Positions 6,881 to 7,402 of a stretch of 64,000 nucleotides of DNA are shown here, in pieces. Where the stretch lies: positions 35,470-99,469 of IMG/VR virus record IMGVR_UViG_3300045988_147330; one strand, 5' to 3'. Numbering within the stretch: position 1 is the first letter of the stretch; each line of letters opens with the position of its first letter. This DNA is from a virus. The notes below the pieces were generated by a model. The model made no database searches. It was not told the origin of the DNA and saw nothing but the letters and a program-made list of their open reading frames with translations. A program made the position numbers and the translations under genes.

Positions 6881-7142
6881 TATGCGACAGTTTAATGAAG
6901 AAAACTTAAATGACACAGGTGTTGTTTTAAGTACGGCAAATCCCTCCGAAATGGGTAAGATGTTTTCTTATAATGGAAGGTATTAAGGAACAAATTGACA
7001 CCATTACAAATCGTTATAACAAATGGTTATACTTGTTCCATATTTCAAGTTGCTAAGATAGCTAGAAAAATCAAAATAACAAAAAGGTAACATATTTATA
7101 ATATATTAACACGTGTTTTTTTCTATTGTAATAACAATATAA

Positions 7143-7150
7143 TATATTTG
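7143..7150 (+). promoter_or_regulatory. -7 promoter motif TATATTTG inside repeat copy 1
   Basis: Matches TAnnTTTG; reads into the TnpB-derived segment. Confidence 0.4.
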
Positions 7151-7183
7151 CATTGTCAATAATAGGAGGATATTATAGCGAAT

Positions 7184-7366
7184 ATGCAATTAGTTTATAA
7201 ATTTGACATCAATCATTCTGACAGGCTTTGCGCTATCTGCCGTGTCAATGCCGATGTCAACGGTGCGCTTAATATCGGTAGAAAAGTATTCGGTGATTCT
7301 TTTATGATAACTGATAGCGGGCGTTGGTATCGCCCCGAACGGATTAACGTTCTAAAATGTTTGTGA
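7184..7366 (+). pseudogene. tnpB: TnpB C-terminal remnant (zinc-finger end + Ruv[14 protein letters not shown])
   Basis: 60-aa ORF ..[19 protein letters not shown]..; only the last ~30 aa resemble TnpB. Confidence 0.6.
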
Positions 7367-7402
7367 ATACATGTACATTAATACCTTATAAATTCTAAGG
7401 AA

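Follow-up and report, generated by a model that had tools for sequence, protein, structure and literature searches.

Miniature derivatives of an inverted-repeat tnpB transposon retain an omega-RNA-like tail in a novel tailed phage

Terminal inverted repeats (TIRs) together with a target-site duplication (TSD) of fixed length are the signature of staggered-cut transposition of the DDE type. Elements of the IS200/IS605 group have neither TIRs nor TSDs (PMC13565253), and the combination of TIRs with fixed-length duplications is absent from IS200/IS605 and IS607 alike (PMC13565253; PMC6188088). TnpB has been described within TIR-bounded DDE transposons, along with solo TnpBs possessing such ends, in six bacterial branches, DDE-1 to DDE-6 (Altae-Tran et al. 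2023, PMC10691335), and Meers et al. (2023, 10.1101/2023.03.14.532601) have put forward trans-acting PATE-like elements reduced to the omega part. Omega-only mini-elements and TnpB in TIR elements are both already described kinds. The subject here is a family of short elements present in four copies (c1-c4) in a 64,000-nt stretch of viral DNA, positions 35,470-99,469 of the IMG/VR virus record IMGVR_UViG_3300045988_147330; this whole stretch is hereafter called the window. The four copies are almost certainly remnants of one mobile-element family, whose parent is a 1.41-kb tnpB transposon.

The similarity among the four copies (Table 1) is far beyond chance. The repeat finder aligns c1 with c3 over a 269-nt block at 100% identity (6977-7245 versus 54279-54547; family D3) and c2 with c3 over 184 nt at 98% (26692-26875 versus 54478-54661; family D2), a family that 7201-7384 of c1 joins at 64% in an ungapped alignment, and the last 51-66 nt are common to all four at 88-100% identity (families D6 and D12; 51 + 27 nt). 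A defined transposon end, GGTATTAAGGAAC..., forms the left boundary of c1 and c3, and on the right the copies end in ...CATTAATAC(C), preceded by the hairpins GGGCG-N7-CGCCC and GAACG-N6-CGTTC, which in c4 keep their pairing via G-U (GGGTG...CGCCC and GAACG...CGTTT). A fifth copy was looked for in the window and none was found. An initial annotation, made from the letters of the DNA and their open reading frames (ORFs), had recognized the four plus-strand copies, the identical upstream block of c1 and c3, the hairpins with a G-U-preserving change in c4, the common end and a -7 motif; all of these were borne out, with coordinates refined to those of Table 1. By tblastn, c1 keeps TnpB residues 1-21 and 365-404 in frame, c2 and c3 keep 1-24 and 378-404 out of frame, and c4 is a stub with 389-404 only. 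The 37-nt segment of c1 against 12 nt in c2 and c3, which had been read as a replacement, is a real difference that reflects two independent deletion junctions. Its 'CAIC', previously assigned to a zinc finger, belongs to the TnpB N-terminus fused to the C-terminal codons, while the RuvC-III box called in the same segment was confirmed against full-length TnpB.

Table 1. Coordinates of the four copies and associated features in the window
Feature	Position	Strand	Description
Copy 1 (c1)	6979-7385	+	407 nt, complete mini-element: left end, promoter-like region, fused tnpB 5'/3' fragments, right end
Copy 2 (c2)	~26664-26875	+	left end degenerate or truncated; right end ...CATTAATAC
Copy 3 (c3)	54281-54662	+	complete mini-element, 382 nt; deletion junction as in c2, 5' block as in c1
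Copy 4 (c4)	~13534-13600	+	right-end stub, last ~66 nt, abutting ATG 13601
Left TIR of c1, GGTATTAAGGAACA	6979-6992	+	inverted-orientation match of left-end pattern at 7369-7385
Promoter-like site, Bacteroidota type, TTTC-N19-TATATTTG	7120-7150 (c1), 54422-54452 (c3)	+	consensus match only
Fusion ORF of c1	7184-7366	+	60 aa, in frame; TnpB codons 1-21 joined to 365-404, RuvC-III motif included
tnpB remnants of c2	26700-26771 (codons 1-24) + 26774-26854 (codons 378-404)	+	joined out of frame
Structured tail of c1, omega-RNA-scaffold-like	7282-7385	+	~104 nt: stem UCGGU/ACUGA, hairpins GGGCG-N7-CGCCC and GAACG-N6-CGTTC, right TIR
Right flank of c1 (guide-equivalent), TTATAAATTCTAAGGAAATG	7386-7405	+	identical sequence, after ...CCACTA, in 25 element-free related contigs
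Left TSD of c3, TTGCAAAA	54273-54280	.	8 bp; right copy 54663-54670
Orphaned KilA-N gene start (MGKMFSYNG...)	6952-6978	+	left upstream of c1; relatives' 223-226-aa proteins begin here
N-terminally truncated KilA-N/antirepressor-like gene	7403-7948	+	181 aa from internal Met; PHROGs, Pfam, comparison with relatives

Filled alleles set against empty ones, over about 1 Mb of related phage loci, delimit the parent element. It spans 1,414-1,416 nt, from GGYATTAAKGAACAAAT... to ...ACATTAATRCC (shorter variants of about 1,290-1,370 nt are also present), and its single gene codes for a 404-aa TnpB with the N-terminus MQLVYKFDINHSDRLCAICRVTNNLYNQALY... The homologues of the 60-aa c1 ORF in a set of 5.8 billion proteins are all short, with some extending at either end: P0024 continues MQLVYKFDINHSDRLC.ICR.TNNLYNQALYIVRNELK..., which is the TnpB N-terminus, and P0012 is the TnpB C-terminus. 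An exact 33-nt piece of the tail was found in 51 IMG/VR loci, many of which carry an intact 404-409-aa ORF with a P0024-type start and a P0012-type end, and viral contigs hold 73 further near-identical copies, of which some 70 are full length; the intact element was found more than 70 times in contigs of related gut phages. Full-length TnpB from many related phage contigs has a 3' end that matches the window copies at 95-100% amino acid identity; this bears out the earlier suggestion that the copies share a tail made up of the 3' end of tnpB and the transposon right end, and supplies the full-length cognate that was to be sought in relatives. The 404-aa ORF of one such locus (L004, 3707-4918) matches NCBIfam guided_TnpB (NF040570) at 162.5 bits against a cut-off of 100, and Pfam OrfB_IS605 (PF01385) and Cas12f1-like_TNB (PF07282) at 79.7 and 43.9 bits, respectively; its best PDB matches are TnpB/Cas12f chains, and the parent protein also matches TIGR01766. 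The RuvC D-E-D triad is invariant in the alignment (A2), namely D190 (IDLG), E326/E327 (EESYTSK) and D368 (NADVN). The parent belongs to a TnpB clade without the second Cys pair (...RGLFKSAVG...), and the family is abundant: a single protein cluster at 90% identity has 2,520 member sequences, and relatives of the protein number more than 7,500. The 60-aa c1 ORF searched alone had no Pfam match and, in NCBIfam, only a sub-threshold match to Cas12b.

The parent tnpB element circulates among gut Bacteroidota-type phages. At the DNA level, nothing among the INPHARED phages resembles the element or the window apart from short patches; the best protein relative there is 38.7% identical. No intact tnpB lies in the window (tblastn) or in the 9.2 kb upstream of it, together 73 kb of the ~99-kb phage genome, nor is there a recognizable transposase within the window and the 9 kb beyond. 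Hence, c1-c4 probably depend on factors supplied in trans. A 99-kb ENA metagenome contig (ERZ1690066, NODE_30_length_99076), whose positions from about 35,435 onward correspond to the window, is 100% identical to it over the overlap.

The ends of the family are those of a TIR transposon. In the parent the TIRs are imperfect and 14-18 bp long (left GGYATTAAKGAAC..., right as given above); the family right terminus reads ...TTAATGCC, the window elements also having ...CATTAATACC, and the terminal sequence bounding the elements in inverted orientation is GGCATTAAKGAACAAATG. Left and right ends are inverted copies of each other, the left-end pattern recurring on the minus strand at 7369-7385 and 54646-54662; once the right end is reverse-complemented, 12-13 of 14 positions agree with the left end, many copies having 13 of 14 (GGCATTAATGAACA versus GGCATTAATGTACA). 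More than 40 full-length copies are bounded by the same left end as c1. Further, c3 arrived by clean transposition into TTGCAAAA: the empty allele in contig L052 (...TTAATTATTGCAAAAATAGC...) contains this octamer once. Comparisons with empty alleles reveal 8-bp duplications at six sites in all (c3, L094, L107, L092, L115 and L087), those other than c3 being TTTCAGTA, TTTCAGAC, TTGACTTT, ATTAGAAA and ATTTGCRR, with several independent empty alleles for each. The window itself has unoccupied target sites at 4018-4033, 5987-5998, 12509-12525, 14404-14420 and 23906-23923, at which related phages hold full-length tnpB elements (L092, L115, L107 twice, and L037/L005); the first four of these are among the empty alleles against which the duplications were verified.

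In the empty allele, a TAT spans the point of the right junction at 29 of 31 distinct sites (background 3.5% per position), in the form ...HTA|T... or, where a variable A follows the right end, ...T|AT..., while the left junctions and flanks have no comparable motif and no IS605-style consensus of a target-adjacent motif (TAM) 5' of the left end. Since HTA|T lies directly 5' of the right-flank sequence in the unoccupied allele, it is located where a TAM would be. It may thus be a candidate TAM, or equally a preference of the transposase, or both, as in IS605 and IS607. As for that transposase, no DDE gene was found among the window ORFs or between inverted end pairs in the ~1 Mb of related loci, where a search for an autonomous partner returned only tnpB elements or coincidental 'GIKE'-coding 12-mers in phage genes. 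In bacterial genomes, the 17-mer left-end pattern, which is too short for the purpose, gave only chance matches in unrelated taxa and no TnpB among the 80 loci listed of at least 120 stretches. Third-base covariation between the left and right ends (GGC/GCC versus GGT/ACC) was inconsistent across copies. A left-end 12-19-mer, GGCATTAAGGAA..., also occurs inside phage ORFs, coding for 'GIKE' (L043 7173-7191; L086 4215-4233, minus strand), which is due either to chance or to remnants of the left end that became fused with the genes.

At least six internal-deletion classes can be discerned in the family. Class A joins tnpB codons 1-21 to 365-404 (c1, L003/L012 and L035) and class B codons 1-24 to 378-404 (c2 and c3), and others join codons 1-16 to 359-404 (P0006) or 1-43 to 356-404 (P0005); at ~25 loci representing at least three sites, the left end (30 nt) is fused to the last 101 nt, and at several loci a 15-nt deletion merges both hairpins into one. 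Every class keeps ~25-30 nt of the left end and the right tail, the latter being ~101-103 nt long, or ~86-88 nt in the hairpin-merged variants with the 15-nt deletion. The recurrence of identical junctions at different sites and in different phages shows that the mini-elements propagate as such. In this light, c1 and c3 are MITE-like internal-deletion derivatives (MITE, miniature inverted-repeat transposable element), which keep both ends, their own promoter-like region and the tail of ~104 nt, whereas c2 has lost its functional left end. Directly 3' of c2, the stretch 26876-26900 (GACGGATTAAGCGTTCCAAG) resembles the second tail hairpin GAACGGATTAACGTTCTAAAA and may be a scrap of another right end. 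One gene upstream of c2 lies a tyrosine recombinase (Phage_integrase) gene, 25219-26298, a homologue of which also precedes the full-length element in L004.

Recombination is evident as well. A given left flank is combined with up to four right flanks and the converse also holds, many copies stand in place of 50-232 nt still present in relatives, solo remnants of left and right ends are strewn across the related genomes, and the phages encode recombination functions of their own; recombination between copies or adjacent deletion is rampant in the family. The duplication is absent from most copies because nearby copies recombine or adjacent deletion occurs. Within the window, c3 has the same 5' block as c1 (100% identity), the same junction as c2 and 3' variants like those of c1; this indicates that the copies swap sequence by gene conversion within the genome. 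A tandem arrangement is seen at L086 2700-2845, where the last ~110 nt (tail plus right end) of a full-length element are repeated after it, so that the omega-like module is duplicated in tandem.

The arrival of c1 is to be seen against the same background. In 25 related contigs, 90 nt (30 codons) of a KilA-N/antirepressor-like gene stand where the window has the 407-nt c1, which thus sits in the interior of this gene and disrupts it, rather than in its leader as first assumed; the Pfam KilA-N match of the downstream part is limited to profile positions 45-105. There is no TSD around c1, and its left flank recurs as the left flank of a full-length copy in L130. Recombination between neighboring copies or adjacent deletion is the best explanation of its origin and a reasonably probable one. 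The initial annotation had also proposed a search for targets of the flanking guides: apart from the c1 equivalent (Table 1), the guide-equivalent flank of c3 is intact in one related contig. For c4, contig L050 has at least the 88 last tnpB codons and the right end upstream of an identical flank; this locus ends at the contig edge, and a full-length copy at the c4 site is therefore only a candidate. The c4 site is empty in many relatives. A tandem segmental duplication (11599-12592 versus 13593-14487, 79-88% identity) is the reason why the sequence after c4 (ATGAAAAAGAAAGAAATAGACG) recurs at 11629, where it is preceded by ...AAATC and not by the TAT motif of insertion sites.

What the mini-elements retain occupies the position of an omega RNA: the sense strand of the tnpB 3' end and of the right end, up to the boundary of the transposon. 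The fold of the 125-nt tail plus flank is modestly better than that of shuffles (z = -2.4). Two helices in the tnpB 3' coding region, UCGGU/ACYGR and GGGCR-N7-YGYCC, are kept across subfamilies: in a sample of eight sequences, comprising the family itself and four IS607-type or solo relatives, pairing holds in 80 of 80 cells, as against 27-51% in slid controls, and three pairs display compensatory double changes (C-G to U-A, U-A to C-G and G-C to A-U). The G-U pairs that it tolerates confine the structure to the sense strand. The second hairpin and the terminus are family-specific and not alignable across subfamilies, with limited variation (78 distinct tails among 133 copies); the covariation suggested as a check at the outset thus extends to the first two helices and not to this hairpin. 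Judged from sequence comparison, the tail plausibly behaves as expected of an omega-RNA scaffold across subfamilies. Upstream in c1 and c3, 34 nt before the ATG, lies the promoter-like site with TATATTTG at 7143-7150 and 54445-54452 and TTTC 19 nt upstream of it, which we take to fit the Bacteroidota TTTG / TAnnTTTG consensus; a comparable TATATTTG precedes tnpB in full-length copies.

The closest TnpB relatives of the parent, at 56-60% identity, are IS607-type and lie directly behind a serine-recombinase gene; the upstream gene in L281 has a Pfam Resolvase match, and the upstream ORF of L151 and its siblings is alike by eye only. With IS607 the family has in common these TnpBs following a Resolvase-domain TnpA and the 3' helices with their compensatory changes. 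However, IS607 has neither TIRs nor TSDs and has GG ends, the IS607-type relatives terminating in ...TTTTAATAACGTGG (...AACGTGG), whereas the window family has a different right terminus, TIRs and 8-bp duplications, and the serine-recombinase tnpA is absent from all 1.4-kb copies, being present only in the 56-60% relatives (L151 and others, L281). The likeness to the DDE-linked TnpBs and the eukaryotic Fanzors of TIR/TSD transposons lies in the placement of TnpB near the right end, the symmetrical ends that are shared by solo-TnpB copies, and a guide taken from the flank starting with the duplicated target, which is compatible with homing. It differs from them in that no DDE gene was found with these ends, the nearest protein relatives are IS607-type and the carriers are phages of gut bacteria. 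Among elements with short duplications, ISL2 and IS1031 duplicate 2-3 bp and IS630 targets TA, neither of which fits a duplication of 8 bp.

With regard to small non-autonomous elements, the MITEs of bacterial insertion sequences parallel the window family in size (<500 bp), TIRs, the TSD (in c3), several deletion classes, multiple copies and the want of an own transposase; c3 has all of these features, c1 all except the duplication, and c2 and c4 are fragments. Unlike MITEs, the family has a parent that encodes TnpB only and no recognizable transposase, and its mini-elements keep a guide-RNA-like module and an internal promoter. The PATE-like derivatives of IS200/IS605 are similarly protein-less, with both ends and an omega-RNA-coding right end, TnpA and TnpB being proposed to act in trans, but the window family differs in its inverted-repeat ends, 8-bp duplication, lack of a TAM at the left end, phage hosts and lack of a Y1 (HUH) transposase, no such TnpA having been seen beside any copy. 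Of the three readings put forward in the initial annotation, namely decayed IS200/IS605 relics, PATE-like mini-elements and guide RNAs recruiting a TnpB encoded elsewhere, the PATE-like one comes closest, and the affiliation with IS200/IS605 was not sustained. A functional parallel might be struck with the free-standing homing endonuclease genes of phages, which in intronless homing and marker exclusion likewise act as nuclease-linked selfish elements at the boundaries of variable segments and replace neighboring sequence in co-infecting genomes; here, however, recognition would be RNA-guided, and the window has the guide module only and no nuclease gene. The combination of an IS607-lineage TnpB, TIRs with 8-bp duplications, no linked transposase, a phage habitat and a swarm of guide-keeping MITEs was not found in the searchable literature.

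Taken as a whole, the explanation favored here for the identity, state, arrival and present role of the copies is given a probability of roughly 0.7. Under it, c1 and c3 may still be mobilizable in trans, and c2 and c4 are most likely inert. In mechanistic terms, c1 and c3 would be transcribed from the internal TAnnTTTG promoter into an omega-like RNA, with the adjacent phage DNA as guide; genomes without the insertion would be cut by TnpB that a co-infecting or resident relative provides, and recombination would then copy the mini-element into the cut rival genome, an idea already advanced for PATE-like elements. Relatives do have intact targets bearing the HTA motif and commonly encode the cognate TnpB. 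As an account of what c1 and c3 do at present, this sequence of events is nonetheless tentative and somewhat doubtful. A wider evolutionary scenario, rather unlikely in its entirety, would have a TnpB/omega module of IS607 ancestry captured by a TIR transposon with 8-bp duplications among temperate gut phages, the HTA|T preference doubling as the TAM; the MITEs (c1 and c3) would be free-riding guide RNAs that borrow TnpB from co-infecting or resident relatives to cut and convert rivals, with c1 knocking out a KilA-N/antirepressor-like gene on the way.

Several points weigh against this reading. HTA|T is short for a TAM and could be a target preference of the transposase rather than of TnpB, and a transposase making 8-bp duplications was found neither in the ~1 Mb of related phage DNA nor in the window. 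The covariation comes from eight sequences from which the structure itself was drawn, and concerns the first two helices only, which could also be binding sites at the DNA level. No Rfam family matches the tail, the gathering thresholds yielding only the tRNA-Cys and relaxed thresholds only noise. The promoter pattern, a consensus match, shows no enrichment in the window, where 21 occurrences stand against 15.5 expected. An intact tnpB may be present in cis in the other ~26 kb of the ~99-kb phage genome. Finally, the ORFs of c2 and c3 are frame-shifted and c4 is without the first helix, and at least part of the family in this window is simply decaying.

That last consideration can be extended to all four copies, which would then be inert relics of past insertions, kept only through slow deletion in phages, with no RNA, mobilization or homing. 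The 66-nt stub of c4, the missing clean left end of c2, the frame-shifts, the lack of tnpB in 73 kb of the phage and the solo end scraps throughout related genomes are all in keeping with such decay. Yet the perfect identity of c1 and c3 over 269 nt implies recent exchange, the same deletion junctions occur at several sites in several phages, many independent deletions have spared both ends and the structured tail, and the 8-bp duplication of c3 is intact; these patterns make general decay unlikely. If the tail were instead a set of subterminal DNA binding sites for a transposase and not an RNA scaffold, the coincidence of the retained segments with the transposon ends would be accounted for, as would the palindrome-preserving variation of the terminal ~25 nt (ATGTACAT, ATGCAT). 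This is distinctly improbable, given that the covarying helices are situated in tnpB coding sequence, 50-100 nt inward of the right end, are common to IS607-type relatives with a different recombinase and different termini, and are strand-specific by virtue of their G-U pairs. It is very improbable that the copies are co-opted regulatory cassettes, in which the internal promoter of c1 and c3 drives the truncated KilA-N gene and the tRNA-Cys region: the TAnnTTTG promoter-like site does face downstream genes in both, and 17 nt separate the right end of c1 from the start codon of the shortened KilA-N ORF, but upstream of the insertion the KilA-N gene has a native promoter-like site of its own, a perfect match at 6708-6738, the insertion shortens the gene instead of improving it, the insert is missing from 25 relatives, the tRNA-Cys has a TAnnTTTG-like site of its own, and c2, c4 and the conservation of the tail are left unexplained. 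That they are IS200/IS605 right ends or PATEs, mobilized as single strands by a Y1 (HUH) TnpA beside a TAM and without duplications, can hardly be maintained despite the OrfB_IS605 and TIGR01766 matches of the protein and the subterminal hairpins, in the face of the TIRs, the 8-bp duplications verified by empty sites, and the nearest relatives adjoining a serine recombinase, with neither a conserved motif 5' of the left end nor a Y1 TnpA beside the copies.

The genome in which these copies reside is that of a novel tailed phage, with a tape-measure protein, a reverse transcriptase like that of diversity-generating retroelements (DGRs), a tyrosine recombinase, a YqaJ recombinase and promoter-like sites of the TAnnTTTG type. 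The reverse transcriptase gene (Pfam RVT_1; 36773-38095, minus strand) adjoins direct repeats of 110 nt at 87% identity (38224-38333 and 38506-38615), the second lying in the 3' end of a minus-strand ORF (38485-40416), and the arrangement looks like a DGR with its template and variable repeats. Retro-mobility of the mini-elements by means of this enzyme was considered and rejected in view of the two precise ends, the fixed-length duplication and the left-only remnants. Free-standing HNH endonuclease genes at 10183-11427 and 33742-34401 (phrog_119; NUMOD4 + HNH_3) constitute further selfish nucleases. Other repetitive features include an ORF (12597-13487) with 27 tandem 18-nt units coding for a hexapeptide-repeat protein (phrog_7964), and a 162-nt repeat at 92% identity (45855-46016 versus 63605-63766) at the 5' ends of two minus-strand ORFs (44912-46015 and 62593-63765). 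Near the window end, 63911-63986 holds three perfect tandem copies of a 19-nt unit, TAAAGCCCCTCTGTCGGGC, which may mark the genome terminus, as it lies near the end of the matching 99-kb contig.

In terms of annotation, a group of 50-90-aa 'hypothetical proteins' in gut viromes is explained as scraps of TnpB fusions. The dozens of pairs of filled and empty sites define a compact system, of 404 aa and a scaffold of ~104 nt, with a candidate TAM that can be tested. With respect to the evolution of TnpB, the family brings together IS607 ancestry, inverted repeats and 8-bp duplications, an arrangement that the searchable literature has only for a few DDE-linked bacterial branches and the eukaryotic Fanzors. 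If the mini-elements are active, they would be natural guide-RNA-only elements that parasitize a nuclease encoded elsewhere, and competition among gut phages would in this respect be RNA-programmable.

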